NCBI RefSeq assembly: GCF_024521635.1
Contig: NW_026250423.1
Span: 676,802-696,801 of the forward strand
Length of the DNA stretch: 20,000 nucleotides
From: Tricharina praecox
Taxonomy: Eukaryota
Reading direction: 5' to 3'
In this document: piece by piece, positions 1-20,000 of the stretch
Position numbering within the stretch: position 1 is the stretch's first letter
How the letters are laid out: each line of letters starts with the position of its first letter
The notes under the pieces: model-generated
Told to the model about the DNA's origin: nothing
What the model saw: the letters and a program-made list of their open reading frames with translations, nothing else
Databases searched by the model: none
Program-made: the position numbers and the translations under genes

Positions 1-49
1 TCCTCCTCCTCCTCCATGCGCTGTGGGGAACAGCGAAGGGTGGTGGGGC

Positions 50-115
50 ATTGTGATTGTGATTGTGATTGTGATTGTGATTGTGATTGTGATTGTGATT
101 GTGATTGTGATTGTG
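50..115. repeat. (ATTGTG)11 hexanucleotide microsatellite
   Basis: Perfect tandem run followed by degenerate copies up to ~130. Confidence 0.97.
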
Positions 116-325
116 AATGTGAATTTGTGATATGCAGCCTCGAGTACATACTGATCAAGTAGTTACCGGTACTCTACATAAGGAAGTATGTAAGAAGTGA
201 GAAGTACTTGCCTACCGCGCTGTGCTGCACTCTACATAGACTCTGGAATACGGTATGTAGTACTCTACTATGTAGAGTAGGTGCGCCTAAATCCAGAACC
301 GATAAAGCATGCCCAACCCGCAGCC

Positions 326-366
326 CATCCCGCGCCTCCATCCCGCGCCTCCATCCCGCGCCTCCA
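326..366. repeat. 13-bp tandem repeat (CCATCCCGCGCCT) x~3
   Basis: Read directly from the sequence. Confidence 0.85.
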
Positions 367-1283
367 TTCCGCAGGCCGCTGTCCCCGGCCCGCACATGGG
401 CCCGCACATGGACACGGACATTGCAAGGGCAAGGAATGGACCAGGACATGGGCATGGACAAGGAACTCTGGGGCCGATATCGATAAGTCCTTAGTTGGCC
501 ATGGCATGAGCTGAAGTCCCATCCCATCGCGCCGGGGGAGGTGGACGTCATCGAAGACATGGGGCAGGATCTGAGTATTGCATGTATGGTACTTGCAAAC
601 TCCGGTTCTGGGTGGCTCCAAGCGACGGCACCGCGAAGGCTCCACAAGGTAACTACTCCACTGCTCCAGTCCGTTTGTTTTTTTTCCTGCTTGCTGGCCT
701 GCTTGCTGGCCTCGTCGCGCGCAAAGCAGGTCAGGGCTGAACACTGCGGTGCGGGTGTAATCCGGTTATCGTCGCGGTGTGGCCGATTGACACTGCCACA
801 TGGCCACATGGTTACTGAGGGGGGGAATCGCAAATTCTTCCGAAGCGCTACAGGTGGGTCCGTGGTCGGTGGTCAGTGGTTGTGCTATCATGTTGGCTTC
901 ATGCTTCGCATTCGCAGCGCCGCAGAGCAGCAGAGCAGCCCATGCCATGCCATGGCGAGGACCAGGAAATTGGGCGGCGATACGATGCGATGCGATGCGA
1001 GGTGAGGCGATCCGGTGTGGTGCGGAATGTGTGTAAGAAGTGTGCACCCTCTCTCAAGCTTTTGCAGTGTGCACGGTGGAGAGCGCACGGGAGTTGCTGG
1101 TTGGTTGCTGGTGAGGTGCCGGTTGGACTGGTCGGTTCCTTGCCTTCCTTCCTCCTCCTCCTGCTCCTCTCTCGAGCTCGAGCTCGAGCTCTCGCGCGCT
1201 CACTGCTCTGTGCGCGGTGTGCGGTGTGCGGTGTGCGATGCATCTTCAGGCTTCAGGCTTCAGCGAAGCAAAGCACATGCGCC

Positions 1284-1357
1284 AGAAGCAAGAAGCAGAA
1301 GCAAGAAGCAGAAGCAAGAAGCAGAAGCAAGAAGCAGAAGCAAGAAGCAAGAAGCAA
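1284..1357. repeat. Compound (AGAAGC/AGAAGCA)n repeat
   Basis: Read directly from the sequence; it produces the spurious KKQKQEAEARS ORFs. Confidence 0.93.
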
Positions 1358-1685
1358 CCGCCCGATCGAGTACAGCAACGCAGCAAGCAGCAACCAAGCG
1401 ATGCGAGTGAGAAGGCACCGGTAGATTACGTGCGTGCGTGTAGTCAATAACCGTGCACGCTCGTCAGTAGCCCTGTCTCTGCTCTTGCTCTTGCTCTTTG
1501 CTCTTGAAAGCTGAGTATTTGCCGCCGAAGCATCGAGCGGCGAGCAAACGAACCCGAGACTCGAGTCGCTCACAGGCCCCGCATATTGACATATGATATG
1601 CACAGAGAAAAGTTTGAATGCACCCATCATAGGTATGCAGTAACTCACGGATACCACCGTCCATACCACCGTACAACTTGTGCTT

Positions 1686-1706
1686 CTGCTGCTGCTGCTG
1701 CTGCTG
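1686..1706. repeat. (CTG)7 microsatellite
   Basis: ctgctgctgctgctgctgctg. Confidence 0.9.
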
Positions 1707-2095
1707 TGTGCTTTTCGTTTCTTTCCTTCTCTTTTCTTTCCTTCTCTTTTGCTTGTCTTCTCCACGACCCTGCAGCGCAGCGGCGCAGCTACGGTACACG
1801 GAGCCTGTGCTTGGGAACTGCCGCCGCAGAGGGGAGGGCACGACTGGCCGTTGTCAAAGACAAAAGACACAAAAGAGGGCGTAGGCGCTGCCGGCGGGTA
1901 CGTACGTGCAGCTGGACGGAGTCTCATGATGTGCTGGAGTGGGGACACCGGTCCAGCTCTACGGGTACTATGATGGATACTGCAGGCAGACTGTGCGAGC
2001 CTCTGCGAGACTCTGCGAGGGAGCGAGGGCATGGTGCGGTATTGGAATACATACTGGAGGACTGGGGTACCGGTGAAGCAACGATGATTCCCCAT

Positions 2096-2126
2096 GTACC
2101 CAAGTACCCAAGTACCCAAGTACCCA
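2096..2126. repeat. (GTACCCAA)~4 octamer repeat
   Basis: gtacccaagtacccaagtacccaagtaccca. Confidence 0.9.
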
Positions 2127-2610
2127 CCTACCAATGCGAACCCGAAACCCATCGCAAACAAAAGTGCACTCTCACAAGCTGATGACAGAAAGAGGTCACG
2201 CCGTCACACATACACAACCAACAGACATCTACCGCCGACCGGTATCTACATTCTATCTATGTGTCGTAATGTTTGGTAGCGAGACGGCCCCCTCCCCCCC
2301 ATCTCTCCCCTCCCTCCCCTCCATTCCTCACCCGGGCACCGACCCGACTTACTTTTTCCTTCTTTTTTTCTCATTCCTGTTCTTTCCTGTCCTGTTCTGT
2401 TCTACCTATTCTGCTCTGTTCACCGGTGGGACCGGAAGTGCCTGCTGCTTTTGTTTTCGCTAGCGTCATGTCGACGCGTGAGCGGCGAAGACCGACGACC
2501 AAAAGACCGAGGTTACTTTTCTGGGCAACTCGCTGTTCTGTGAGCACTCGCTGCAAGCACAAGACAGCTGCATCATCATCGTCTGGGATTCTGTGCTGTA
2601 TGCAATTCTG

Positions 2611-2670
2611 TTTCTCTGTGTGCGTTTCTGTTTCTCTGTGTGCGTTTCTGTTTCTCTGTGTGCGTTTCTG
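2611..2670. repeat. 20-bp minisatellite (TTTCTCTGTGTGCGTTTCTG) x3
   Basis: Three perfect copies plus partial flanks. Confidence 0.93.
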
Positions 2671-2708
2671 TTTCTGTTTCCTCAGACTGCAAGCACGGCC
2701 GATGGTTA

Positions 2709-2731
2709 ACCACCACCACCACCACCACCAC
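2709..2731. repeat. (ACC)~7 microsatellite
   Basis: accaccaccaccaccaccaccac. Confidence 0.9.
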
Positions 2732-4400
2732 TAGATACTACAAACAACAGAAGAGGTATGCATACATACCTCCTATACTCCGTAGGTAGTAGGTTATGCA
2801 TCATCCGCATCGGCATTAACAGCGCATCAGCGCATCAGCGGTACGGTATCGTGAGATTGCCGCCGCCGAGGAAAAATAGGCATCAATGTAAGTATGATAT
2901 ACTTTAGCTTTAGAGCAGCTTTCGCGATCAGTCGCTACATACCGTTTTCCCCCTCCCCACCCTTCTCATGTACTCTGTGTATGTAGAGTACGCGTACCCC
3001 GCCCCGAAGAACAATCCAGATTCCACAGCCCGCCGGTCTAGGTACTGCTGCTGGTGCTGGTGCTGCAGCTTTCTCGTGGCCCGTTAAACTACTTCTACGA
3101 GCAACTAGCTCCAGGGCCTGCCTGCACGATGGAAGGAAGGATGGTTTGGATGGATGGATGGATGAACCCGGACCCGAGCTCTAGATAACTTCTAAGCGCC
3201 CGCTGTGCAGAAACTGTCCTGCTAGTCCACGACTGCACGACTCCACGACTCCACGTCGCGTCGGGATTTACTGTACTCTACTGGAGATATGTATTCGATG
3301 CATACGCTCTGCGGGTCTGCAAGTCTGCAAGTCTTGCTCTCCTCAGTGCATAAACTCACTTATGCACGCATTCGCGTCGTCGTTGTCGTCGTTGTCGTCG
3401 TGTCGTCGAAGGCGCCTGCTGGTCCATCAAACGGAGTGGTTTCCTGCGCAGGAGTCGAGTGCGCCGTGTGCACTGTGCACTGTGCAGAGTATCGGAAAGA
3501 ATCTTCCGCCCCCATTGCGAGGGACGGACTCGCAAAATCATTTCATTTTCTTTCCACGACACGGACTGGCACAGTGGCAGGGCGCTTCATCGACCCTCGC
3601 CATTCGTTCATTCTTCCTTTTGCACTTTGCCTGCCAAGCGAGGGAACGAGGACGAATGCGAGGCTCGCTAATCTGCGTTCTGCGGTCGGTCTGCGTTCTC
3701 GCGAGTCGCCACCCCTCGCGTGCCTGTCGGCTCTAACTCTACTAACTAGCTCTAATAACTAGTAGAGTACCTAGGATGGATATGGATATGGGGGGAGATG
3801 GGGGTGGGGGTGAGGGTGAGAGAAGATGGGGCGAATTCAAGTCGAAGTGGACGGGACGGGACAAGGCGGAACGCGATATGATATGATATGAGATGTTAGA
3901 TAGATCCAACATGTTGAGCTCTGTTGGTTTCTCCTCTGGATACATACCTGGTCTACGGAGCTGTTGGAACTCTACTTAACGGAGCTGTTGGTATTTACTA
4001 TACTATTCTACAGAGCTGGGGGTAGGGGGAGGGGCCTGGTGGGGGACGGGGGGAGGGGGGTTCGCTAACTACTGTAACTATTGCAGCACGAAATCACGCA
4101 AGATGATCAACGATTGGTTATATGTAAACTATCATATGTAGCGCAATATAATGATGGATTGGGGGCAGTCACGGTCGCGGTCGTGGCCGCCCACCATGGT
4201 CTTGATCAATGCGACGAGTCTCCATAGCTCTAGTTACATACATGATACGGCACGGATGGTGCAGGTGCGGGTGTGATAAACGGTAGCCTAATTGTACTCT
4301 ACCTATCATAGGTATCTGGTAGCTACATACACGTATGTTGAGATGTAGAGTACATGGCGTGAGCTGTCATGATCCAACTGCATCCGTAGATACCGTATCC

Positions 4401-4439
4401 GTTCGTTCGTTCTTTCGTTCGTTCGTTCGTTCGTTCGTT
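4401..4439. repeat. (GTTC)n tetranucleotide microsatellite with one interruption
   Basis: gttcgttcgttctttcgttcgttcgttcgttcgttcgtt. Confidence 0.9.
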
Positions 4440-6119
4440 TTTCCCTGCCGGCTCGATGTTATAGGTGAAGTGGGGGAGGGGGGACGCCTGATCGCTAGCC
4501 CACCTACCTACGTCCGCACCTATGTAGCTGAGATATGTATCATGTTGTCCCATCACATCACATCACATCGGCACGGATGCTGCATGAGTTTTGAATTTCG
4601 CCAATTCGTCAATCCGAACCACTCGGATCCGTGGGCGTTGAACTTGCGCGTTGGGGGCCAAAAGTGAGGCCTCGCGAGGCCTCGCCTGGCGAATCGAATC
4701 GAGTCGAATCTGCCTCGCCAGGTTCCAGGCCGGAGTGATGGGCTGTGAGTCGCTCAAGAGGTCGAATCCTATGTATGCATGTATTGTACGAATTCCTCTG
4801 CCGTTCGTTCCCGGGTTCTGCGTGTCTCTGAAGTACATACTTGGCGAGGGCGTGCATGTATATAGTTGGTATGGTATGGGAGATATCTGCTCACGGGAAC
4901 AAACACCGGTCAAATCACAAGTACCAATGTACAGGTACTTACAGCAGGTACGCACATACACACTCGCAGCGAAATTTGCAGATGTTGCTCAGTGCCGAGT
5001 CTAGTTCTGGATGACTTGTAATTGGAATTCTCATGGTGAAAACCCTCGCCAAAAGGCATCAGAACCATCGCGATGCACCCAGCTCCTCCCCGCTGACCAC
5101 CCTATGCCCGTGCTCGTGCTCATGCCCATGCCCATGTGTATTCTATGTACGTGTGTAGATACCGTATGCATGCACTCCACATTCCTGAAGTGCAATTTTG
5201 CTTCTGCTAGACGCCACCTTGACGCATTGGGACTTATAGTTTTCTCGCCCCGCAACTGCACCGTAAGCCCGCTGTCCATGGGTTCAGCCGCGCGGATCAT
5301 ATCTCTATCTACTATCATACTCCATGTTTTGCTCGGTAGTAACTAGATCTCGCATGCATCCCATCCCCTCCCATCCCCTCCCCTCCCCTCCCCTCCCGCC
5401 CGCGTCCTGACTGCACTGGACTGCACTGGACTGGGCTTCCCCAGAAATTCACCCTGGCGCGCGGATGCTGGAGATGAGATGGGTATGTACTCTAGGTCGA
5501 TATGTGGGTATGTGGTAAGGTCAGGGCATCTCGCCTCGCGTCAACGGGCGCAGTACTGCTGCCAGTAGGTGGTAATGTGCGTTTGTTTCATATCGTTGCC
5601 GCTAGATATCGACGTAACACGGGCGTCGGGGACGTGATTTCCTTCTTTTCGCCCGTTGTTCACTCCCGAGCGGGGCTCCTGAGGTGTGGTGGAGGTGGAG
5701 TTTAGTCGCCGCTTGTTAGTTGTCTCAGGCAAGCCGCTATCCGAGCTGTTGTTGTGGTTGTCGTGATCTTGCACGGATGTGGGACACTGGTCCGCTCCGT
5801 TTAGTTAGTCTCCATTACCATTCCCCTCCCTCTTCTCTATCTATTGTTGCGCATCGTTGCGCACATTCATGCACTACTCTGAATACAGCAGATTGAGCGT
5901 CGGAGCTGAGAATCTTGAACCGTGAGATTTGCAGTGCAGTGCCAGTGCAGTACGGGCGGGCTGCGAGTGTGCTCAGCTAGCTAAGCTGGCTAGCTGCTCT
6001 AGAGTAGGTAGTGGGGAAGCGGCTCGCCTCGTATCGTATCGTCTCGCCCCTCCACCTCCACTCTTTGGCTGCTACCTATTGGCTATGATGTGACGGCGGG
6101 ACTCCAGTGGATTGAGGGT

Positions 6120-6151
<32 letters not shown>
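6120..6151 (+). repeat. Poly-G tract (32 G)
   Basis: Read directly from the sequence. Confidence 0.95.
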
Positions 6152-6152
<1 letters not shown>

Positions 6153-7332
6153 CGTTCTCGCTCCAGGATAGTTCTAGCTGCTCTGTGAAAGCGGATAAGC
6201 ATCATGTCTAAGGCCCCCCAGGGCTGGGGTATGTTCTGCGCCGAGAACCACGGCTACACTCTCGAATCAGAAGACCCACCATCTGTCGTCCAAGAGAAGC
6301 TACAGCCCTCCCTCCCTCGCTCGCTGTCCCGTGTCCCGTGTCCTCAAGATCGATCCAAACACATTCCTCGCTGGCGGGAGATGACTGGTCGCGTTGGACC
6401 AGGCTCTCTTACAACCTGTATGATACATACCCCGCCCATGCCTCGCCGCATTCCAAACGCGCGTTGGTGGTGGTTGTAACTTGTGTCGGATCGGGCGGGG
6501 TTCGTGACCGTCCCGTCCAGTTGTGGAAAAGAGTGAGTGCTTGCGTGTGAAGATGCTGTTTGCCCGCTGCGATCGCACTCTGGTTTGGTTGGCGGAGGAT
6601 ATGTAGAGTATGTGCATACGGACTCGGCCCTGGGGCACTCAACTCGTGCGAATCCTCTCTCCTCCTCCCGGACGGCGTCAAGCGCGCGAAAACCAGTCCA
6701 ACCCCTCGGCGCGATCACGCACTGGCACTCGCGCAACCCGGACTCGGACTCGGACTCGGAGCGTCGAGTGTGCATCGTACAGGACATAGAGTATATAATC
6801 TCAACCGGCGTATTCGCTTCGGCATCCCTGGGTACCTCCACGCACTCGCCCGTGCGTGGGTATCAGCGCAGGCTGTTCCTCGGTTCCTCTGTGCCCTCCC
6901 TCCCCCTTGGAACTTGATGTGAAGCGGATCGAAGCGGCAGTACGAAAGGCGAACGGTCAATCGCAGCCTGTAGTGGATGCGGAGCTAGGTACTATACTTT
7001 GAGTAGCCACAGAGTAGAGTAGGGTCGATACGGCCCAGCCGGGGTCGGAGGGACACAGGGACCGCCTGTGTGCGGCATGATTGGTCACTCGTGGGATAAC
7101 TAGAGAAACCGTTCATTCCACCTCATCCCCAAAAATTATCCGCCCAAACGACATCTTCATTCCTTACATAAAACTCCTATTCTCGGCCATCATCCGGCCT
7201 CTTATTTCGCCCTCTTCAACCGATCTTGGACTATGCCTCGACGTTGGCACACCTGCATTCCAGTAGCAATTAGCCGCGTTCCCGCTAACGGCAGCCAAGG
7301 GAAACAGCGACAAATTGTACTTATCGTCGGTC

Positions 7333-9667
7333 TCACTCCTCCATGGCAGCAATCGCTTTGAGCAGTCGCTTCACGATATCTGAATAGCGCTTTTGAGTGG
7401 CTATATTCAATGCCGTGAGACCCAGGCTGGTCTTGGCCTTTATGTTGGGATTCCGGCGGAGCAGTTCATCCACTATACTTGTGTGTCCGCTCTGGACCGC
7501 CAGGTGAAGCGCTGTCCAGCCGTCTCTATCCGTGGCCTTTATGTCGGCATTCCAGATAAGCAGTACCCGCACTGCATATATGCGCCCGCCCTCAGCCGCT
7601 ATGAGCAGTGCTGTGAGACCCCGGCTGGTCTTGGCCTCTATGTCGGCATTCCGATCGAGCAATAGCCTCAATGTCTTGTATCTTCCGTACGCGGCAGCCT
7701 CGTGGAGCGGTGTACGGTTGTCTTTCGTCGTAGCCTGTACGTCGGCATTCCGGTCGAGCAGTAACTGCACTGTATCTGGGTCAAAGTTCCGGGCTGCCAG
7801 ATGAAGCGGTGTCAAATCGTCTTTCGTCGTAGCCTTTATGTCGTCATTCCGGTCGAGCAGGAGCTGCACTGTAGCTGTGTGTCCCATCTGAGCCGCCAAC
7901 TGTAGCGCCGTACAACCGTGGAGCTCCTTGGCTTTAATGTCGGCATTCCGGTCGAGCAGAAGCTGCACTGTAGCTGTGTGTCCGTCTCCAGCCGCTGCGA
8001 GTAGTGCCGTATAACTTTTGTCATTCTTGGCCTCTATGTCGGCATTCCGATCGAGCAGTAGCCGCACTGTATTCGTGGATCCGTAATGTGCCGCTACGAT
8101 CAGCACCGTAGCACCCCCGAATCGCGTGGCTTTGATATCGGCATTACGGTCGAGCAGAAGCTGTACTGTAGCTGTGTGTCCGTTTCTGACTGCGTGGTGA
8201 AGCGATGTCCAGGAGTCATTATCTATCGCTTCGATGCCGGCATTTCGGTCGAGCAGTAGCTGCACTGTAGCTGTGTGTCCCATCTGAGCCGCGAACTGCA
8301 GCGCCGTAAAACCGTGGAGCTCCTTGGCTTCAATGTCGGCATTCCAGTCGAGAAGAAGCTGCACTGTAGCTGTGTGTCCGCCCCAAGCCGCTAAGTGAAG
8401 CGGCCTCCGAGACGCCTCCGCCTGCTCGGCCTCTATGTCAGCGCCCTGGTCGAGTAGGTGTTTCGCTGTATCGGTATGCCCGTTGATGACTGCGAAGTGA
8501 AGCGGAGTTCTTCCTGCAGTGGTGTCTATGGCCTCGATGCTGAGGCCCAGACTTTGTACGAGCGACATGACGGCGATGGTGTTTCCCCTGCCAGCGGCGG
8601 CGTGTAACAGAGACGTCCTGGAACTATAGGGTGTCATGTGATATCGAACTGAGGTGGTAAGATTGATGCTGCCCTTTCGAAGCCGTTGCAATTGCCCCAC
8701 AATGAGCCCCTCTCCGGCCACGCGGCCACCAGTTTCCCTCCCGCTCCGGCTGTACATGTCGCCATTGTTCAGCTCGGAAATATTTACTGGAAGACAAATG
8801 ATCGATAAGTTCGGAATCTGGGCCATGCTCAGCCCACTGAGCTGGCTCGACCTAGAATCCGACGTTCGGATGCTCCTAAGAGAGCCGATTGCTGAATTTC
8901 CGGCTGCCTGTTTATTCACTCCATTCTCAACCGGAGTCTGCTCATGCTCGGTTGAGAAATGGCGAAAGCACCTTTCCGATATTGTGGAGAGGATCGAAGT
9001 TCGGGAACGAACCGAGGATACATCATCATCCCCCGACGAAGCATCCACCATGCGCGCCTCGAGGCTCGGATTCGCCTCCATGATTGCCGTCATGAATCGT
9101 TTCAGTTCGGCCATGTCGCGTTGCACTTGCTGCGTCGACGAACTAAGGTACACCGTAAATGTCTGTAGCATGTACATACACGCGGTCATGGGGCATAAGA
9201 GGTGGGGGATAAACCGGAAATTATTGGACCTACCATGTGTAAATGCCGAGTAACAGGCTCAGAGATGTCTTATGCATTTGCAGGTTTCGCAGAATCTTCG
9301 CGATATCCTGGTCTTTTGCCGCCCATTTGCCGCGATCCCAGATACCAAACTTGGACTTGGGATCGTCGCTGTGGTCGGTCTTGAGGCCCTTGAGCTCTTT
9401 ATCGAGTTCGGAGAAAGTGCACACACAGCCCGTCAAAGTAGCGACCAGATCCTCGACGTAGATTCTAGATTTCCGGGCCATGCTCTGCTCAGTGAAGTGG
9501 ACTATGAAGTCCTCCAGCTGGCCAAAGATCGCGTGCAGTGATTTGACCTCGGCGAGCACGTTACGCGCGGTACTGGGAGCGTCGATAGTGGTGGAAAGGA
9601 GCCCGATGACCTTTGCTCCGATTTGCAATAGTCCCGTAACTGACGTTGCAACCGAAAGAGGGTCCAT
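7333..9667 (-). CDS. Paralog 1 (intact): HeLo-like N-terminal domain + conserved linker + 13 ankyrin repeats, no NOD; join(9667..9234, 9142..7333), 747 aa
   Basis: ORF 9230-9667 starts MDPLSVATSVTGLLQIGAKV and ends LQMHKTSLSLLLGIYT, typical of fungal Helo_like_N/STAND N-terminal domains. A GTAGGT donor at 9233 and a CTTAG acceptor ending at 9143 join it in frame (TG+T=Cys) to ORF 7333-9189. That ORF has 13 countable ~33-aa ankyrin repeats (T[PA]LHxAAxxGHTATVQLLLDRNADIEAK). Exons total 434+1810=2244 nt, divisible by 3. Confidence 0.88.
7336..8616 (-). repeat. ~99-bp-period ankyrin coding repeat array of paralog 1 (13 units)
   Basis: Recurrent + strand core gtcgagcagNagctgcactgtagctgtgtgtcc at multiples of 99 bp. 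Confidence 0.92.
9143..9233 (-). other. Phase-2 spliceosomal intron of paralog 1 (91 nt)
   Basis: TG|GTAGGT...TACCTTAG|T. The same position and phase occur in paralogs 2 and 3, and splicing restores the frame. Confidence 0.85.
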
Positions 9668-9741
9668 GACTTGCTAACCAAAGTATGGGTGTGTAGTGAG
9701 CTACCTATTGGACGCCGGCTGGTGGTAGAGATCCAGTGTCA

Positions 9742-9748
9742 TTATATA
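9742..9748 (-). promoter_or_regulatory. Putative TATA box (TATATAA) of paralog 1
   Basis: TATATAA on the minus strand about 75-80 bp upstream of the ATG at 9667; supported by motif and position only. Confidence 0.4.
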
Positions 9749-10563
9749 CCACAATATTCCCCGCAGATGCACAGCCCTGCGAAACACCTATCTAGGAGCC
9801 TCGTGGCTTAGCGGTACCGGTAGCTAGATACGAGCGGCATGCAGCCATTGGCAACGTTTCTTTTGAAAACCCGCCGGAGCACTTGGACACATCGGGCAGG
9901 ACGCCAGAAGGCACCGAGTCCGTCGGACGCGGCGGCGGTGGTGCACGTGGTGGCGGATTGCGAACCTAAATCGTGTGCAGAACGCTTCTCAAAATATCGA
10001 AGGCTAATCGTACGGCTCCATGTCTGGCGTACTGCGGGTATGATGACATAGCCCGGCAGAGGGAACGGTGAAAATAAACAAGATGGAAAAGTTGGGGTTG
10101 TATTCAACTTCGAAGAACCATCGAATATGGCTCTCCTCTGCTGCCTAGAACGTTTGGTGCCACCCGATCCGGCTAGTTCGGCTCTCCCTACCATTCGGAT
10201 ACACCGATCTGACTAGCTCATCCTCCTATCTTATCTGATCGCCCATCTATCCTACATCCCTCCTCCCATGGTGGTGGCAGACAACTCCCAGTCACAGCCG
10301 GGGGGCAGCTAACTACTAGGAGTCCTGTGGGGCATAGCGATCTCGAACCACCCGGCAGCGAATGTAATATACAAATACCTATTCAACAGGCGAGAGTACG
10401 GAAGAAATTCCCACTCGCACGTACCTACGGCATTCCCATCCCGATCCTCCGCTGCGACTGCCACAACTCTTATGTACGACTACTAATGTTACTACTATGT
10501 ACTGTGTATCACGTGGTCTCGTAGTCAGTCCATGTCCCCAGCAGGCGTACCTCGTGGGTCTCT

Positions 10564-10734
10564 CTACGAAGTTCCGATGGGGAGCACGGGCGTATTGGAG
10601 CCACTAGTGTCTATAGCCTCTAGCCCACGCGGCACCTGTGCTGCGGCATGATTGTCATTCTCTACAGCTAGGGGCAGCGGCGTTCAACAGTACTGATCTT
10701 TGGCCTGGACGTCAGCTCCGCGGTCGAGTAGCAA
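10564..10734 (-). pseudogene. Decayed ankyrin tail of paralog 2 beyond its current stop
   Basis: The frame continues as LLLDRGADVQAKDQYC*TPLPLAVENDNHAAAQVPRGLEAIDTSGSNTPVLPIGTS*, aligning with the paralog 3 C-terminus (LLLDHGAVVHARDRHGWTALQLAENNGHEATAQLLR). A second stop, TGA, lies at 10684-10686. Confidence 0.8.
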
Positions 10735-13391
10735 TTACAATATATCAGGGAACCCATCACGTGACACCCGGTGAAGCGGTGTCCGGCCGTCCTTGTCCCT
10801 TGTCTTGATGTCTGTACCGCGGTCGAGTAGTAGCTGCACTACAACCGTGTGTTCGTTCTGTGCCGCTAGGTGAAGCGGCGCCAAATCGCCGCTCTGCTTG
10901 GCCTCAATGTCGGCACCACGGTCGAGCAGCAGCTGGGTTATGGCTAGATTCCCGTTCATGGCCGCTCGATGAAGCGCCGTGTGGCCGCTGTTGGCGTTGG
11001 CCTCAATGTTCGCGCCGCGGTCCAGTAGTAGCTGCACTGTAGCTATGTGTCCGTTCTGGACCGCTCGGTGAAGCGGTGTCCAGTTGCCGCTCTGATTGGC
11101 CTCAATGTCGGCGTCCGAGTCGAGCAGCAGCTGTACTGTATCTATGTGCCCGTTCTGAGTCGCTGCGTGCAGCGCGGTAAAGCCCAGATCCGTCGTAGCC
11201 TCAGTATCGGCAGCCCGGTCGAGCAGTAGCTGCACTGTCGCTCCGTGTCCTTCGTAGGCCGCTGTGAGCAGTGCCGTGAAGCCCTCATCGGTCTTGGCCT
11301 CAATTTCAGCACCTCGGTCAAGAAGTAGCCGTATTGCGACTGTGTATCCGCCCTGGGCCGCTTGGTAAAGGGCCGTACGACCACTTTTCGTCTTAGCCTC
11401 GATGTTAGCACCGCATTCGAGCAGCAACCTTAATGTAGTTGTGTGCCCACTCTGTGCCGCTTGGTGGATCGGCGTACAATCGTTGGTTGCCTTGGCCTCG
11501 ATGTCGGCTCCTCGGTCGAGAAGTAGCTGCGCTATAGTGGTGTGCCCGTGCAAGGCCGCTCGGTGGAGTGCCGTGTGACTGGTGTTGGTCCTGGCCTCAA
11601 TGTCGGCACCAAGTTCGAGCAGTAGTTTCACTGTAGCTATGTGTCCGTCCAAAGCTGCTCGGTGAAGCGCCGTATGACTGTTGTTCCCCTTTGCCTCGAT
11701 ATTAGCACCACAGGCGAGCAGTAGCCGCACTGTACCACTAGTGAGCTCATTCAGGGCAGCTCGGCGAAGCGCCGTATGACCGCGGTTTGTCGTAGCTTCG
11801 ATGTTGGCACCACGGTCGATTAGTAATCGGATTGTCGTAGTGTTCCAGTTCCAAGCTGCTCGATGAAATGCCGTGTGACCGCTGTTGGTCTTCGCCTCGA
11901 TGTCGGCCCCAAGGTCGAGCAGCAGCTCTACTGTATGTAGATGACCTTTCCAGGCAGCCCGGTGAAGTGATGTCCAACCGTTGTTGTCCTTCGATTCTAT
12001 GCCGGCACCGTGGTCGAGCAACTGCTGCACTGTAGTTGCACGCCCATGGTCAACGGCCGTGTGAAGCACCGTGGAACCAACGTTATCCTTAGCCTCGATA
12101 TCGGCACCGCGGTGGAGTAGTAGCTGCACTATAGCTGTTTGTCCGTTTTGTGCCGCCCGATGGAGCGGTGTACAGTCGTCGGGTTCCGTGGCCTCGATAT
12201 CAGCCCCGAGTTCGAGCAGCAACTGCACAGTATCGATCTTCTCTGAAACAACTGCCCTGTGCAGCGCCGAACTTTCTTCTTCCCAATCCCGGGAGTCTAC
12301 ATCGACGCCCAGCCTGTGTACAAGCGCTTCGACAGTGGCGTTATCTCCTTTACGAGCTGCATCATGCAACGCAGTGACCCTTTCGTTCACGGGTGTGAAG
12401 CGGTGTCGAATAACGGTGGTGATGGTGCTGCCGCTCATCCGTAGCCGTTGAAGTCCTTCCACAGAGGGCCATGCACTCCGGATATTGCGAAGTTGCACCA
12501 CACTGTCGCTGGATTTCTCCTGGGCATACATGTAACCATTATTTAGTTCCGAAATGGATATAGGAAGACAGAGGAACGATATTTTTGAGATGTGCGCCAA
12601 GCTCAGCCCAGTACGTTGGGACCATTTGGAATCCATCGTGCCGGTGGTCTCGAAAGAGCTTGATGAATCGTTCTTCCACGCCTTGGTGTATTCCCTAGTC
12701 TCCGCTAGAATTCCTGCTATCATGGGCTCTGCGACGTCCGGGAACGTCTTCCTGACAGCTGTCAGAGACTGCTCGAGTTCTGCCATGGCGTCTTGCAGTT
12801 TTTGCGTTGAAGTACTAATCTTTGTCAGCAGTGATACGTAGAAACGCAACGGCTGGACGGGAGAGAGATCATCAATCCGCCTTAAACGGCTGGGTGTCGC
12901 CTAGGTATGGGAGTTGCCATCACACATCGGTGAGGACCCAGGACTAACCATGTGTACACCGACAGCAACAAGCTCAAAGCTATCGTGAGCATCTGCAGGT
13001 TCCGCAGTATCTTTGCGATATCCGGATCCTCCGCGGCCCACCTAGCACCCTCCAAGCGCCTACGCTGAGGCCTATTACTGTTGCCGCTGCCAGCCGCCCT
13101 TACACCCCCAAGCTCCTTATCCAGATCCGAGACAGTACGCACACAGCCGGCCAGAGTAACGACCAGATCGTTGACATAGATCTGCGATTTTCGCGCCATG
13201 CTCTCCGGCTCGGCGAAACGGCCGACTATGCAGTCGTCCAGCTGCCGGAGAATCGCGTGCAGCGCTTGCACCTCGTCATGCACGTTACGCGCAGTGCGGG
13301 GAGCGTCGACGGCGGCGGAGATAACACTGATGATCGTTGTGCTGGCCCGCAGTAGCCCCGCGACCGATGCGGGAACCGAGAGGCGATTCAT
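10735..13391 (-). CDS. Paralog 2: divergent HeLo-like N-terminal domain + linker + 16 complete ankyrin repeats and a truncated 17th; join(13391..12949, 12814..10735), 840 aa
   Basis: ATG at 13391 (MNRLSVPASVAGLLRAS) aligns with MDPLSVATSVTGLLQIG of paralog 1. GTTAGT donor at 12948, GCTGAC branch site and ATTAG acceptor ending at 12815. Exons total 443+2080=2523 nt. Ankyrin homology continues past the TAA at 10735-10737. Confidence 0.82.
10738..12378 (-). repeat. ~99-bp-period ankyrin coding repeat array of paralog 2 (16 units plus a partial unit)
   Basis: Repeats of HTALHRAAxxGHxxTVQLLLDRGADIEAK. Confidence 0.92.
12815..12948 (-). other. Phase-2 spliceosomal intron of paralog 2 (134 nt)
   Basis: TG|GTTAGT...GCTGAC.AAAGATTAG|T, at the position homologous to the paralog 1 intron. 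Confidence 0.85.
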
Positions 13392-14529
13392 CGAGGAAAC
13401 GGCAGCTTGTATGTAAGCGGTCGAAGGTTGGAGGACGGACGATAGGTCGGTGTGCGCGCGGCGTGGTGTTTGGTATGCACAGTAGGCGGCCTGTTGCGGA
13501 GTCGGGTCACTCACCCGCCCCCACCACCCCCATCCCTCTAGGTGTTCCCCTCGCTGCTGGCAGCCTTGTGCGACGCCCGGTCTTCCTTATACTCTAGGTT
13601 GTCGCATTAGTAATATCCTTCGGGACCAACCAGAGTATGATCCACGGGGATCTCGCATTAGCGATGCCGAGGACAGTGTGCTCCGTAGTCCGGCCCGAAC
13701 GGCCGTCCAGACCGTTTGGAGGTAGTCCGTCCGGTCCGAGGTGGCGCCTGACAGGGTTGGTCCCAGTCCGATGGTGGCGGCCAGCCGCCCACGTCACGTG
13801 ACTATGATCTACACACTAGTCCCATTACGGTCATAAACCAGCAGGCAGCAGCGAAACGAGTGAGATATAGTTAATGAGATTTGTGCGGGAGCAACTACTT
13901 TGGCACTTACGGCGATATGACGGTGGTGGCCACGACTTGCCCTTGGCCTGAGAATCATAACTACGACAGTCCTAGAGAAACCCGTTCTGATGGGTATCCG
14001 GCCATATGGGTTCGCACGGTGCACCTCACCTTGCCAGTCACTCGTTCGACCTCGTACGTACAATAGGATGTTTTGCTTCACCCTCCGGGCACTACCTACA
14101 GTGCTTCAAAAGGTATTCATGGGGGCCTGCAGGCTGCTCGCCATACGGCACCACCATATAATGTGTGATTCTACCTATCTGTGCTCGCCACATGCCGCCC
14201 CTCGGCAGTGCCTGTTCTCACCTCACACATCCTCAGCTCCGACTTGTTACCGGAGGATTAGCAGAAGGTCGTGGTTTGCTGCGCACTTTTCGGCGATGAG
14301 GTGGCCGCTCGGTGGCGGGCTATCTTGAGTACCTAGCTCGGGCAACAAATGTGAATTGGAACTTGGAAGCGAAGCCAGTATGTATTACACTGTTTCTACT
14401 GCTATGTACAGGTCCGACAGCTGCCCATCTTGCTAATAGTATCATACCAATCGTGCGGCGTCGTCATTTGCGCCTGTTCCGGGAAACCGAACCAGCAACC
14501 GCAGCCTGGTCCTCCTTAGGGGTGCCAAT

Positions 14530-15681
14530 TGCAAACTGTCGAAGCAGCTGTGCCGTGGCCTCGTGCCCATTATTTTCGGCTAGTTGCAGAGCCGTCCAGC
14601 CGTGCCTATCTCTGGCGTGGACAACAGCACCGTGGTCGAGCAGTAGTTGTATTATAGCATCCCACTTATAAAGCGCCGCCACGTGAAGTGGCGTCCGGTC
14701 GTATTTGCCTTTGGCTTCGATATCGACACCCAGGTTAAGTAGAAGCTGCAATGCATCTGCATGTCCGTTCTGGACTGCCAGGTGAACATGTGTCCAGTCG
14801 TTGTCCACGGCCTCGGCACACCGGTCGAGTAGTAGCTGGACTGTAGCTGTGTGTCCTTGTTGAGTCGCTATGTTCAGCGGCGTAGAACCCCGGTTTTCTT
14901 TGGCTTCGATGTCGGCATTACGGTCGAGCAGTAGTTGTACTTTAGCTGTGTCTCCGTCCTCAGCCGCCATGTGCAACGCGGTGAATCCTCGGATGGTCAT
15001 CACCTCTATGTCCGCATTCCAGTCGAGCAGTAACTCCATTGTAGCTGTGTGTCCGAAGCGGGTTGCTGACTGAAGTGATGTTCAGTCGTTGTGGTCCGTG
15101 GCTTCGACGTCGGCATTCCGATCGAGCAGCAGCCGCACTCTATCTATATGTCCGCTTTTGGTCGCTAAGAGCAACGCTGTAAAACCTTGTTTTCCCTTGG
15201 CTTCAATGTCGGCATTGCGGTCAAGCAGAAGCCGCACTGTAGCTGTGGATCCTTTGTCGACTGCTAGGTGAAGCGGTGTCCGATCTTTATCGTTAGTGGA
15301 CTCGATGTTGGCATTCCGGTCGAGCAGTAGCCGCACTGTAGCTATGTGTCCGTACTGAGCCGCTAAGTGCAATGCCGTAGCATGCCGGTTTTACTTGACT
15401 TCAATGTCGGCATTCTGGTCGAGCAGTAGCTGCACTGTAGGTCTATGTCCGTAGCGGGCTGCTAAGTGAAGTAGTGTCCAGCCGGAGTCGAACCTAGCGT
15501 CGACATCGGCATTCCGGTCGAGAAGTAGCTGCACTGTAGCTACGTGTCCGATGTACACCGCTATGTGCAGTGGCGTAAAGCCTTCGCCATCCCGGGACTC
15601 AACGTCGACACCTGGCGTTTGTAGAAGAGCCTTGACCGTGATGTCATCTCCCTGGCGAGCTGCTTCGTGTAGTGTAATGAC
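14530..15681 (-). repeat. ~99-bp-period ankyrin coding repeat array of paralog 3 (12 units)
   Basis: Repeats of TxLHLAAxxGHxATVxLLLDRNADIEAK; unit 9 has a 3-codon in-frame deletion (DRCAEAVDND). Confidence 0.9.
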
Positions 15682-16192
15682 TTGCTCTGTAACTGGGGCC
15701 AAGCGATGCCGAACCGTGGTGGTGGTGGTGATCTTGCGGTGGCGTTTCCATGGCTTTTTAATCCTTCCTAAGGAGAGCAACCCACCCGTGATGCTCTGTA
15801 GTTGCGCCCCGCTGTCGCCGGTTTTCCCCTGGTCATACATACTGCCGTTATTCAGCTCGCAACTGTATACCGGAAGATAGAGGACGGATATATTCGATAT
15901 CTGGGCCAGGCTCAGACCGGTGAGCTGAGACTATTTGGATTCCGTCGTGCGGGTGGTCTTGAAAGAACTAGCTGATGAGTCCATAGCCGCTTTCTTTTAT
16001 ACCCGAGTCTCAGCCAGAACTCTGCAAAAGCCGTGTCCAGATGCTGCCGAAAGGCCTAGCAATGCATCGTCGTTACGCTCAAGAGGAGTTGCTGCTGCTA
16101 TACGCTCGACAAGGTCCGGGACCGCCTCCCTGACTGTCACCATGAACTGCTTCAGTTCTTTCATGTCGGGTTGCAGTTGCTGAGTTGATGCA

Positions 16193-16319
16193 CTAGGTAA
16201 TAAGCTCTGTATCAGCAACTATTCGTACGCACGTGTTGGCCGTGTGCGAAAGAGATCAGGCTTCGGGAAGGGCTGGGTGGAGCCCCGGGGAAGTATCATC
16301 GACGGGACCCTAGACTAAC
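16193..16319 (-). other. Phase-2 spliceosomal intron of paralog 3 (127 nt)
   Basis: TG|GTTAGT...GCTGAT...CCTAG|T, at the homologous position; splice signals are intact. Confidence 0.8.
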
Positions 16320-17149
16320 CATGCATAAACCGACAGCAATAGATTCAGCGAAGTCTTATGCATCTGTAGGTTCCGCAGTATTTTGGCGATATCCTGTTCT
16401 TTGGCTGCCCACTTGACGCTGTCCCAAGGCCGAAACTGATATTTGGTGCTGTAGGCGTAGTCCGTCTTGACGCCTTTGAGGTCCCTATCTAGCTCAGAGA
16501 ATTTACACACGCAGCCCGTCAGGATGACAACCAGGTCGTCGATTGCAATCCTGGATTTGCGAGCTATGCTCTGTTGGGCGAAAATTACGATGAAGTCGTC
16601 CAGCTAGCGAAATATCCCGTGGAGTGCTTGTACTTCTACGAGAGTGTTGCGGGCAGTGCTGGGGGCGTCGATCGCGGTGGAAAGAAAGCCGATGACCTTG
16701 GCTCCGACCTGCAACAACCATGCTACCGATGGGGCAATCGAAAGAGGGTCCATCGTGGAAGTAGTGGCCGGTTGACGCTCGTGGTCCGGTGGGCAGAGGG
16801 TGTTCATAGGCGATCACGGGGTTCGTGATGTGCGGCTGTAAGCGCACATCATGCATGGTATCGGTGGCACCTATGTATCAAATCTTGCACACGTTCCACG
16901 GATTCACCGTGTAGAGACAATCAATCAAAGCGGATACTATTTGTACCATGTCGTCCGATCAGCGACTCAAGTGCCAATGCGCAGCGCTACAATACCTAGG
17001 TAAATCGCTTCGAGCCCTCTATATATATGCTCGTTGGATCCAAGGCACGATATTCATACGTAGGAGATACTCAGATCTTTTGGCTTCCAAAACACGTACG
17101 GCCGCCACGGCGATCCACCAAGGGCCATTACCATCTTCACTGGTACAAC

Positions 17150-17337
17150 ACTAGGAGTGATACCTTATGCATGTGTAGATTCCGCACGATCTCCGCGATA
17201 TCCCGGATTTTTGCCGCCCACTTGACACCAGCCCAGGTATCACACTTTGACCGAGGATCGTCTCCAATGTCCACAGCCTGTTTTGAGGCTTTTCCGCTCC
17301 CTATCGAGTTTAGAGGAGCTGTACACGCAGCCCGTCG
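17150..17337 (-). pseudogene. Paralog 4 relic: frameshifted 3' half of the HeLo-like exon
   Basis: One frame reads TGCVYSSSKLDRERKSLK (compare TGCVCTFSELDKELKGLK). After a frameshift near 17265-17285 it reads DDPRSKCDTWAGVKWAAKIRDIAEIVRNLHMHKVSLL (compare DDPKSKFGIWDRGKWAAKDQDIAKILRNLQMHKTSLS). I could not recognise an N-terminus or an ankyrin exon for it. Confidence 0.8.
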
Positions 17338-19324
17338 ACATAGGTAGGTACTACCCTGTGAAATTTGCACCTTAAGCGTAACCGCGGATTCCCACGGTGT
17401 AATTCCTCGGCGGCGGTGCCACTACTCATATATGTAGGTATTCCAACAGAGTTGCGAAAGAATCTTCCAGTGAAGTTCAACCTCGTTCCTATTACTCTCG
17501 ACTTCTTGCAGCTGCTGGTGGCGGCAAAGAACCCCCCGTTATCATCAGTGCTATCCTATGGATCGTAACGCGCTGGAGTTCCAAAATCGCCTCAGAAATG
17601 GCCACTCCTCCACCCACCCAGTCGCACCACCAACACCCCGGAGTAGGGCTGTGACTAGATAGAGTTTTTCTTTAGATACGAATAAAGGGTTTCAATCATA
17701 TTATGGTAGTTCTAATGATGGTTTAAGGCTAGCTTTCCACCCAGAAGCGCAAATTAACTTTCCACGACCATACTGGCCCACCACCACATGACCCTTGCCC
17801 TCAACCCCTAGAACTCATAAAATATGATGTAGCCACTCTAGAAATTGATGTGACGCAGCGGCGCCCCCCAGACCTTACGCGATCATTGGGTTTTGGACGC
17901 AAATGTCGACATTTTTCGTCATCTCAAAACGAGGCTAATTTTTGTCCGGCGGTCTATGCCATCGTAACATTTTTAAAAATAGGATTTATTCTGGGTTACC
18001 TTTCGTAGCAATACTGAAGATCATAAGCAACCCTCAGAGGTAAATATGGAAGAATAAAAATGTCGTCTCCTCGAGAAGAATTTGGACACTTGGACCGCTT
18101 CTATAGCCTTCCACGACAGGGCAGCTGGCGATGTGACGTTTGGAATGCGATAGAGTAGTGCTGTAGAGAAAGATTGGTGAAATCAGGGCTTCCAGGACTT
18201 GTTTTGAGACATCAGAGGTGTGATTTATCTGTCTGCCAGGTTTCAGCGAGTGATATACCGTGCGGCAGCATTTATTCATCGGTGCTTTGTCTTTTGGAAA
18301 GTTGATGACCGTCAAGGGCTTTTAATGTATCATCTCTTTGCCCCCAGAGTATTCATTATTTAGGTGACGATTTTTGTGCTGAATGGGGCAAGTTTGTATC
18401 TGAAATTGCGACTTGCCAGATGGCGAAGATCTCTCGCGCCTCTTCTCGTTTAAAACCTCAATCACAAGCGTGAAAAACTTTCAAAATTCACTAGATTGTA
18501 GCCACGAACCAAGAGAACAACTCTCTCCGCAAATTCTTTGGACATATTCTGGCCTACTTTTGGAGATTTTCCGGGTTGAGTGGAGTCGCGTGGCCATTTT
18601 GGAACTCTAAGTCTAAAGTTACGATCCAAGTGATGGATGAGGTTGAATTTAAGGGGTAACCAGTGGGAGTGGTTGTTACATGAGGTGTAGCTGTCGGGTT
18701 GGGATGGGTTGCCGTTCTGGTAGTGGCGATGCAGCCCTGTAGACTGTAGAACATGAGAACCAAAGTCCCGAAGTCTTGCCTACTACCGTACATTCGTGGA
18801 CTCTGCTATTTCGAATCCAGAGATTTACCATCGTAACGTACTTGCTTGAACATATCCGACTCGTTAAGTGCAATGCTTATTTATGCTGCCTATTCTGTTC
18901 TAAGCCGAGACGGCCGGATCAGAGGGCGAGCACCCACGCTCAACTCGCAGCGCCAGCCTTCGGCAGACCGTCCAGTTCGGCCCGAGACGGGACGGCGTGC
19001 AATAGACCGTCCATGTAGCCATCGCCGTCCCTCTCTTGAGTCAAACTGAGCTCCCTAGTGTGGGATTCGGGGCGGGGGCGCCTCCGTGTTGCAGTAAGCG
19101 GCGGGCGGCGAGCGGCGGTAACTATGGTGAGACCAAGATGTGAAGGCGGGTAGACCTGATGCCGTCTCTCAACGTTGAAATGTCCTCTGATACTGCTTTT
19201 ATGTTCGTCTACATAGTCGGTCAGTCTCTTGTTCAATACATCAGACGCACCTATTATCAACCACCACAGATATCCTCAAAAGGTTCATAGACGATAGGCC
19301 TCCTTTTCTTCCGTTGCTTTTCAC

Positions 19325-19891
19325 CTAATTGAATCAGTTCATCAGTTGTCCATACCCGTCGCGGGACTCTCACTGCTCTAGTAAACTAGACGCTGTCCGC
19401 TGAATCCACTTGCAGGGACTGGACTCACCGCGCGGGGAGGGCGTTAATCACACACAACTTGCGAAACCGGATATATTGCGCCCCGGCCGTCGTCTCCCAC
19501 CAATTGCATCAGCTCCTGATAGGTCGGTTTCTCTAGCCCACCTTCATAGCATATCAACAAGAGCCCTTCGAGCATGTCTCGAGTAACGACCGCAGACACT
19601 TTTCTACCTTGATAGGTAGAGTACTCACGTCGGTGCCAAGTCCTTCAGGGCGGCGATGTTAGCCCTGCGGAGCTGCATACGCGAGGCGGGCGAGCGATGA
19701 CGTTCGACGAAACCCAGGAGCCCACGGGTTCGGCAGATGATGATACTGGTACCTTGGTCTTGTTATTGAGATTCGACGAGCAGAAAACTATGCATGGATT
19801 TGGGCGTGTTGGATGCATGCATGAGGGCTAACTAACTAACCTCCCAAGCGGATGCGACGAGATGCCGGAACCCGGGCTACCGGTAGTTAGT
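19325..19891 (-). other. Possible part of an unidentified multi-intron transcript
   Basis: Minus-strand signals: ACTAAC branch (19891-19886) with TAG acceptor (ending 19877); 36-nt exon PGFRHLVASAWE; GTTAGT donor (19840); GCTAAC branch (19663-19658); GTGAGT donors (19628, 19428); CTGAT..TTAG acceptor (ending 19325). No recognisable protein. Confidence 0.3.
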
Positions 19892-19948
19892 TTCGCTTGA
19901 ACGATCAACCGATTACGCCATCTGCCGCCGCTCTGCCGATCCTCAAAC

Positions 19949-19989
19949 ATTTCTAAGCCGGCGCTTGACCATTTCTAAGCCGGAGCTTG
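19949..19989. repeat. 23-bp-period direct repeat (ATTTCTAAGCCGG[C/A]GCTTGA) x2
   Basis: catttctaagccggcgcttgac followed by catttctaagccggagcttga. Confidence 0.75.
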
Positions 19990-20000
19990 AAATTTTCGAC

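Follow-up and report, generated by a model that had tools for sequence, protein, structure and literature searches.

The 20,000-nucleotide stretch of the Tricharina praecox genome analysed here (contig NW_026250423.1, positions 676,802 to 696,801; hereafter the window, with coordinates counted from its first letter) harbours a tandem array of minus-strand genes, in which a helical N-terminal domain of the HeLo-like family (PF17111) is joined via a linker to a long series of C-terminal ankyrin (ANK) repeats. The array comprises members of a large, uncharacterised branch of this family that lacks the nucleotide-binding and oligomerization domain (NOD) defining the NOD-like receptors (NLRs). The locus represents an old tandem array under birth-and-death evolution, composed of two live genes (A and B), one copy riddled with nonsense codons (C) and one fragment. 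A preceding interpretation of the letters, made without database searches (the sequence-only reading), had described three full-length paralogs on the same strand plus a relic. Paralogs and relic were indeed found where it had placed them, all on the minus strand; copy C, however, contains five in-frame stops, so that two of the three paralogs are intact.

Tandem array, transcripts and pseudogene copy

Gene models were derived from stop-to-stop open reading frames (ORFs), the sequence around exon ends and coordinate-based splicing. Gene A starts with the ATG at 9667. Its exon 1 (9234–9667) comprises codons 1–144 plus two nucleotides, encodes helices 1–4 of the N-terminal domain (N-domain) and is covered by spliced contigs from public runs of two studies (X1 and X2). 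A 91-nt phase-2 intron (9143–9233, GTAGGT...TTAG) precedes the coding part of exon 2 (7333–9142, stop codon at 7333–7335), which encodes the N-domain's final helix (to 9019), the linker including a conserved motif (8749–8865) and 13 ANK repeats (7336–8622). A second, 68-nt GT..AG intron (7251–7318) is located in the 3' untranslated region close behind the stop codon, where X1 and X2 contigs join 7250 to 7319 across a stretch with CT..AC ends on the plus strand. In gene B, exon 1 (12949–13391, ATG at 13391) begins with MNRLS... and shares 54 % identity with exon 1 of gene A; it is followed by a 134-nt phase-2 intron (12815–12948, GTTAGT...TTAG) and the coding part of exon 2 (10735–12814, stop codon at 10735–10737) with the linker, the motif (12520–12639) and 16 full ANK repeats with one partial repeat (10738–12381). 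The reading frames of both genes are intact, the products of A and B consisting of 747 and 840 aa, respectively. The pseudogene copy C (14464–16753) is likewise composed of exon 1 (16753–16320), an intron (16319–16193) and exon 2 (16192–14464), and comprises 720 codons including 12 ANK repeats. The 190-bp N-domain relic (17146–17335) corresponds to residues ~79–139 and is split into two pieces in different frames, with tblastn segment pairs at 17335–17279 and 17274–17146 displaying 58–63 % identity to A. Among A, B and C, amino-acid identity amounts to 46–50 % and nucleotide identity to 61–62 %, with transitions about as frequent as transversions; to judge from these values, the paralogs are old.

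Each of the three copies possesses one phase-2 intron at an identical position, after codons ...Y-T/A. The models are supported by an annotated T. praecox protein (BZA05DRAFT_399098, here P0001), which reads ...SVYTC followed directly by SSTQQ... over the same exon junction. The contigs of X1 and X2 omit exactly 9143–9233 and 12815–12948, and the skipped stretches bear CT..AC ends on the plus strand, corresponding to GT..AG on the minus strand. Soil-metagenome DNA retains the introns: X3 contigs read into the A intron, and one of them (record 19) is unbroken over 12328–15168, thereby spanning the B intron. Because the X1 and X2 contigs precisely remove GT..AG introns which the DNA runs retain, they are regarded as transcript assemblies; the RNA status of both runs is otherwise a guess and not on record. 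Genes A and B are therefore transcribed, i.e., they are expressed and precisely spliced.

Word depth in X1 and X2 was very high (555–730 and 35–40) over 11212–11562 and 16126–16476, and contigs with differing letters align at positions 16376 and 16382. Transcripts from additional paralogs elsewhere in the genome probably map onto these two stretches.

The in-frame stops of copy C interrupt codons 50 (TAG, 16604–16606), 210 (TAA, 15997–15999), 232 (TAG, 15931–15933), 412 (TAA, 15391–15393) and 515 (TGA, 15082–15084). Since five nonsense codons accumulated over ~2.2 kb, with zero frameshifts, C is classified as a pseudogene and not as a full-length gene. X3 DNA contigs (records 19 and 20, 0 differences) show the same letters in C, and the stops are therefore not errors of one assembly. 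Most of C is uncovered by X1 and X2 (13669–16125 and 16477–17500) and covered by X3 DNA; this gap is not evidence of silence. Three of the five stops could have arisen from the codon of relatives by one C>T or G>A change each. Repeat-induced point mutation was considered as the main cause of the stops and rejected: TA/AT is 0.95, but (CA+TG)/(AC+GT) is 1.11, at a GC content of 0.54. Two related soil-metagenome contigs (X4), which bear many nearby differences, carry G instead of A at 16606, by which the first TAG is turned into CAG (Gln); copy C may be intact in some relative.

Domain architecture of the encoded proteins

The N-domain was assigned to PF17111 (PigL_N, formerly Helo_like_N), as the sequence-only reading had expected. 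The profile matched exon 1 of A with 28.4 bits (E 1.3e-6; gathering cut-off 27.2) and the spliced homolog P0001 with 32.0 bits over 183 residues, corresponding to profile positions 1–173 of 209. Neighbours in the ESM Atlas are PigL_N/SesA clusters at 0.96. With a profile of the NOD-less clade, exon 1 of B scored 164 bits and C 193 bits. A profile built from relatives bounds the N-domain at residues 1–186 or 1–187 in A, B and C. It therefore crosses the intron, as does the PF17111 match of P0001, and exceeds the ~145 aa originally ascribed to it; accordingly, the linker, taken before for ~145–175 aa, is reduced to 108–134 aa.

AlphaFold2 modelled exon 1 of A (150 aligned sequences) with a predicted local distance difference test score (pLDDT) of 88.3 and a predicted template modelling score of 0.82 as four long helices spanning residues 3–25, 32–56, 71–96 and 110–143. 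The model of P0001 (397 aa) reaches pLDDT >90 over residues 41–220, which include a fifth helix. When the A exon 1 model was compared with 48,161 chains by VIA-align, mouse MLKL (4btf_A; Z 11.8, root-mean-square deviation 2.4 Å over 100 residues) ranked 4 and the N-terminal domain of human MLKL (6ux8_A; Z 10.9) ranked 5, both scores lying in the generic range of helical bundles. Further matches were the CC-R domain of NRG1.1 (rank 10, Z 10.1), Sw-5b (rank 11) and the CC domain of MLA13 (rank 23, Z 8.9), and the P0001 model recovered the same structural families at Z 7–8.4.

The extreme N-terminus (MDPLSVA.SV.GLL...) represents the most conserved part of the family, with D2, S5 and G12 being near-invariant. 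The best 19-mer of helix 1 (residues 6–28) has a Kyte-Doolittle mean of 1.56–1.69, which is borderline for a transmembrane segment. According to excerpts from the literature, HeLo and HELL domains are homologs of the MLKL four-helix bundle, and their membrane targeting is driven by the N-terminal helix (PMC12881547; PMC10197012; PMC9815663). A profile search of PDB sequences returned only insignificant matches, of helix 1 (9595–9661 in A) to influenza M2 transmembrane peptides (E 0.04–0.3); these probably reflect merely a hydrophobic helix of small residues.

The linker is mostly disordered, contains 60–66 % polar residues (23–26 % Ser+Thr) and carries a conserved motif, S.LSLAQISNISV..LP....EL.N..Y, which had previously gone unnoticed. 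A hidden Markov model of this motif, built from 46 seed instances, has the 41-aa consensus TRSTAWSVLSGLSLAQVSNISVIALPIYISELSNSEWYVEG and locates the motif at residues 238–276 in A, 207–246 in B and 227–267 in C (i-Evalues 1e-17 to 1e-18). Of 75 NOD-less relatives of at least 330 aa, 69 possess it, a count which includes the 46 seeds and leaves an independent gain of 23; none of 10 NLR-type proteins does. The motif is situated a median of 68 residues (range 20–126) after the bundle. With an earlier regular expression, the stretch had been retrieved from all three array copies, from P0001 and from 28 of the 57 relatives of at least 250 aa; among 36 further proteins, 15 contained it, and the nine of the NLR type did not. 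No Pfam family covers the linker motif. Because it accompanies the N-domain across NOD-less relatives, bundle, spacer and motif are considered to form a conserved, shuffled module. In the AlphaFold2 model of P0001, pLDDT is 88–91 over the motif (residues 281–310), and isolated beta-bridge residues are found in the bundle (43 and 108) and in the motif (283 and 294); the bundle-only model of A exon 1, which is of a different sequence, has no bridges at the equivalent bundle positions. A complex prediction for P0001 residues 39–225 and the motif segment 266–335, run without alignment, scored 0.00 and carries no weight either way.

The C-terminal parts display a 33-residue periodicity, the numbers of 33-aa units (A, 13; B, 16 and one partial unit; C, 12) agreeing with the 12–17 ANK repeats counted before. 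Their consensus reads xGxTALHxAAxxGHTATVQLLLDRNADIEAKxx. Most variation falls on repeat positions 1, 3, 8, 11, 12, 32 and 33, which are the usual binding-face positions of ANK and generic to such repeats. The mean repeat-to-repeat identity is 52–53 % (maximum 76 %), and Tandem Repeats Finder arrays with 99- and 198-bp periods show 65–76 % nucleotide matches.

The absence of Walker A and B motifs and the lack of room for a NACHT or NB-ARC domain, both proposed by the sequence-only reading, were borne out by all searches. NACHT, NB-ARC or AAA families of Pfam matched none of the pieces at E ≤ 0.01 and none of the linkers at E ≤ 1; the Walker A/P-loop patterns (G.{4}GK[ST], [AG].{4}GK[ST]) and hhhhD[DE] were not detected in A or B. 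A tblastn search with the 650 residues following the N-domain of 10 NLR-type relatives matched only ANK repeats in the window and otherwise nothing below E 0.4. A cryptic P-loop NTPase in the linker, the possibility raised against this architecture at the outset, was rejected, as there is no Pfam, pattern or tblastn trace of it. Because the defining NOD was looked for and is absent, A, B and C are not NLRs. In the 20-kb window, no NLR gene was recognised and no amyloid-motif genes were noticed, an amyloid-motif profile search not having been made. The remainder of the window contains no long ORF in six frames: the stop-to-stop ORFs within 1–7000 and 17500–20000 are short and mostly of low complexity, the longest comprising 316 aa (1253–2203, minus strand).

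Relatives of the N-domain and known systems

A phmmer search with A exon 1 against 1.84 billion representatives (clusters of 50 % identity) yielded 826 matches at E ≤ 1e-3, 354 of them at E ≤ 1e-10; many are ORF calls of exon-1 size. Among the best 150 matches, 51 proteins of at least 300 aa were subjected to a Pfam scan. None of these contained NACHT or NB-ARC, 35 contained PF17111 (E ≤ 0.001), and a recognisable C-terminal partner was found in 16: RhoGAP (4), G-alpha (3), ubiquitin (3), PBD/CRIB (2), and one each of Ank, SH3, protein kinase and GIT_SHD. Named relatives add fusions to Ras/Roc-type GTPase, PH and beta-lactamase domains and further ones to CRIB and kinase domains (examples of fusions being P0038, P0047, P0058, P0105, P0163 and P0179); the layout of the kinase-fused members P0105 and P0163 copies that of MLKL. 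The named relatives originate from Dothideo-, Sordario-, Leotio-, Geoglosso-, Lecanoro- and Pezizomycetes, and the ANK-fused version was seen in Pyronemataceae.

Canonical PF17111-NACHT-ANK proteins (1664–2746 aa) are detectable with the family profile at E 5e-11 to 6.5e-4. On the clade profile, NOD-less relatives score 160–235 bits and A, B and C 164–227 bits, versus 37–75 bits for NLR-type proteins. A quick maximum-likelihood tree of 88 N-domains, midpoint-rooted and with the NLR-type rows on long branches, separates 77 NOD-less rows from a group of 11 (nine NLR-type proteins plus P0231 and P0241) with 97 % support in the Shimodaira-Hasegawa-like approximate likelihood ratio test (SH-aLRT); P0236, an Aspergillus protein with NACHT-like and ANK parts, had been removed by the coverage filter. 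A, B, C and P0001 form a 100 % clade within a 15-row group (95 %) that also includes proteins of Geopyxis, Sphaerosporella, Wilcoxina and Trichophaea. In this quick tree, the partner type tracks N-domain subclades, which span several fungal classes. By these profile scores and tree groupings, N-domain and motif define a NOD-less clade that extends across Pezizomycotina and from which the N-domains of HeLo-like NLRs are set apart.

With the fungal NLRs of HeLo-like-NACHT-ANK type, the array proteins have in common the N-terminus of the PF17111 family, the C-terminal ANK repeats and the occurrence in filamentous ascomycetes. They differ by the lack of NACHT/NB-ARC, with a mere 108–134 aa of linker, by the separate N-domain clade and by the 41-aa motif, which is absent in 10 of 10 NLR-type proteins. 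According to the passages available from NLR surveys (Dyrka et al. 2014, PMC4986451; Sordariales, PMC12258605), HeLo-like domains occur 'almost invariably' with NACHT, and 97 % of such NLRs are T-NACHT. Surveys of this kind begin from the NOD, and a NOD-less class is therefore invisible to them.

The excerpts on HET-S and HELLP (PMC9815663, PMC12881547) describe a HeLo-type bundle on a NOD-free protein with a hydrophobic N-terminal helix, features which the array proteins approach with their predicted bundle and borderline hydrophobic helix 1. HET-S and HELLP, however, end in a short prion-forming motif and have a neighbouring NLR, whereas the array proteins end in a long ANK solenoid. Their linker motif is internal and seemingly unlike the PP pattern, a formal comparison not having been made. 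In HET-S, HELLP, MLKL and plant CC domains alike, a bundle with hydrophobic helix 1 stays inert until a C-terminal element changes and then goes to the membrane, as stated in parts of PMC12881547 and PMC10197012. MLKL (four-helix bundle, brace and pseudokinase) and the plant MLKLs also have a NOD-free bundle, a linker and a regulatory or binding domain, the latter being ANK in the array proteins and a pseudokinase in MLKL. Among the structural matches that are biologically related, MLKL is the best, with 13–15 % identity in the structural alignment and Z-scores in the generic helical range.

The combination of PigL_N and ANK already exists in databases without being annotated as such. It is represented by Geopyxis carbonaria KAI5781264.1 (P0015, 712 aa), by partial models from T. 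praecox and, by name, by MrPigL. P0015, annotated as 'ankyrin repeat-containing domain protein', has the same layout of N-domain, motif and ANK repeats and in the quick tree grouped with SH3-fused and unannotated proteins, not with the array copies. Together with P0015, the T. praecox proteins BZA05DRAFT_399098 (P0001) and BZA05DRAFT_453445 (P0002) are the nearest database proteins; these partial models carry no annotation beyond 'hypothetical' or 'ankyrin' protein, and P0001 shares 76 % identity with exon 1 of A and 79 % with C. MrPigL from the Monascus azaphilone cluster, eponym of 'PigL_N', combines PigL_N and ANK by name. The available text describes Monascus PigL as an 'ankyrin repeat protein' that plays no part in pigment synthesis. 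Whether the architecture had been described before was the question left by the sequence-only reading: entries thus exist, and no account of a NOD-less HeLo-like-ANK family, of the NOD-less clade or of the linker motif was found in the parts of the literature searched, the supplementary tables of PMC9815663 and PMC4986451 being places that could hold such architectures. The passages retrieved place HeLo and HeLo-like domains only at the N-termini of NLRs or on amyloid-triggered executors.

Candidate mode of action and its alternatives

Conservation in the family peaks at the extreme N-terminus, the hydrophobicity of helix 1 is borderline, and the distant motif is modelled confidently with beta-bridge residues. 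Because of these features, the favoured interpretation, proposed by analogy and held with middling confidence, is a regulated membrane-targeting bundle with a latch motif and with partner binding by ANK. The bundle would represent a membrane-targeting module held closed by the linker motif packed near helix 1, and the ANK solenoid would bind a protein partner. Binding of this partner, or modification of the Ser-rich motif, would free helix 1, upon which the protein would move to the membrane. Such a device would follow MLKL-style logic (bundle, linker, regulatory domain) and would need no oligomerising NTPase. Its output may be membrane damage and cell death, or relocalisation alone; an immune or cell-death role would be plausible.

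Several observations weigh against this interpretation. The PF17111 score of A is marginal, and taken on their own, neither exon 1 of B nor the pieces of C gave a Pfam match at E ≤ 0.01. The top structural match is IncA (Z 13.1), designed bundles are interleaved with the MLKL and CC matches, and Z-scores below ~13, thus including those of MLKL, are, as the tool itself cautions, common among helical bundles. Foldseek retrieved no PDB match for the A and P0001 models at E ≤ 0.001, and HET-s HeLo is absent from both VIA lists, a plain absence that carries no weight as evidence. Because the Z-scores are in the generic range and Foldseek returned nothing, the predicted fold is read only as a four-helix bundle in keeping with the HeLo/MLKL class, which the literature proposes for PF17111, structure alone being no proof. 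The comparison with this class that had been suggested at the outset thus came out in part: the bundle is confident and MLKL ranks among the first five, yet neither the scores nor the Foldseek search single it out. The latch idea derives wholly from the pLDDT of the motif and from isolated beta-bridge residues in one AlphaFold2 model. Sensor repeats of high internal conservation in fungal NLRs are near-identical tandem repeats with hypervariable positions; the 52–53 % repeat identity found here is unlike these. Functional data on any member of the clade were not found in the parts of the literature searched. Finally, the clade partners (CRIB, RhoGAP, Ras-like, G-alpha, SH3) and the class-wide subclades resemble housekeeping cortical signalling more than immunity; a membrane-targeting module, whether regulated or constitutive, accounts for the partner set no worse than a 'minimal immune receptor' would.

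The last point leads to the possibility that the N-module is a constitutive anchor at the membrane or cortex, which only tethers the fused domain (here an ANK docking platform) in polarity or small-GTPase signalling, with no switch and no death. Such a non-lethal scaffold is a serious alternative, if on balance less likely, and is given weight because the partner spectrum (CRIB, RhoGAP, G-alpha, SH3, kinase, GIT_SHD and ubiquitin in the 51 scanned proteins, Ras/Roc and PH among the named ones) is that of cortical small-GTPase signalling and because the subclades are conserved across classes; that the partner type follows them is expected of conserved cell-biological functions. An anchor would also agree with a helix 1 that is only borderline for a transmembrane segment. 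It agrees less well with the ANK subgroup, which is lineage-restricted and tandemly duplicated and includes a pseudogene and a relic, a turnover less typical of housekeeping genes, while elsewhere this domain family is known from executors of cell death. Moreover, a near-invariant motif at variable distance from the bundle suggests regulation over a passive tether. The same turnover speaks for the proposal of the sequence-only reading, according to which the proteins would be minimal receptors dedicated to non-self recognition or immunity, a lethal HeLo-like executor being released once ANK directly senses a foreign ligand. Its architecture was confirmed, the array shows birth-and-death turnover, variable residues lie on the ANK binding face, the N-domain is of an MLKL-like fold class, and A and B are expressed. 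The variable positions are, however, generic to ANK repeats, signs of diversifying selection were not obtained, internal conservation of the repeats is not high (52–53 % amino-acid identity, 65–76 % nucleotide matches), and the paralogs are old (61–62 % nucleotide identity). Since, in addition, most relatives of the N-module have endogenous signalling domains as fusion partners and no NLR gene was found in the window, such a dedicated receptor is considered improbable.

Derivation of the genes from HeLo-like-NACHT-ANK NLRs by loss of the NOD, leaving decoys or regulators of NLRs or decaying remnants, would account for the detectable relationship to canonical PF17111-NACHT-ANK proteins (E 5e-11 to 6.5e-4) and for the fact that one copy (C) is already a pseudogene. 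It is highly improbable in view of the N-domains, which belong to the NOD-less clade by bit scores and by the quick tree (97 % SH-aLRT), and of the linker motif, present here and absent from all 10 NLR-type proteins; neither the linkers nor the rest of the window hold a NACHT-like trace, and A and B are both intact genes with precise splicing. The regulated membrane-targeting bundle with latch motif and ANK-bound partner remains the favoured interpretation.

A wider generalisation, rather unlikely at present, is that these proteins constitute an undescribed, Pezizomycotina-wide class of NOD-independent MLKL-like proteins, in which a latch-held bundle is combined with interchangeable triggers (ANK, kinase, CRIB, RhoGAP, Ras/Roc GTPase, G-alpha, SH3, ubiquitin). 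The array belongs to a large sister group with no NOD in the 51 longer representatives scanned, with a linker motif of its own and with many signalling partners. Should the bundle be a mere membrane tether, this group would caution against reading every PF17111 match as an immune or death domain. Should it be a regulated membrane effector, fungi would have their own equivalent of the MLKL design and a cell-death toolkit wider than the NLRs. If the generalisation holds, fungi would possess, beyond the NLR system, numerous modular switches of the 'sense-and-puncture' or 'sense-and-relocate' kind, of which the ANK-fused tandem genes of Pyronemataceae would represent the direct-binding sensor version.

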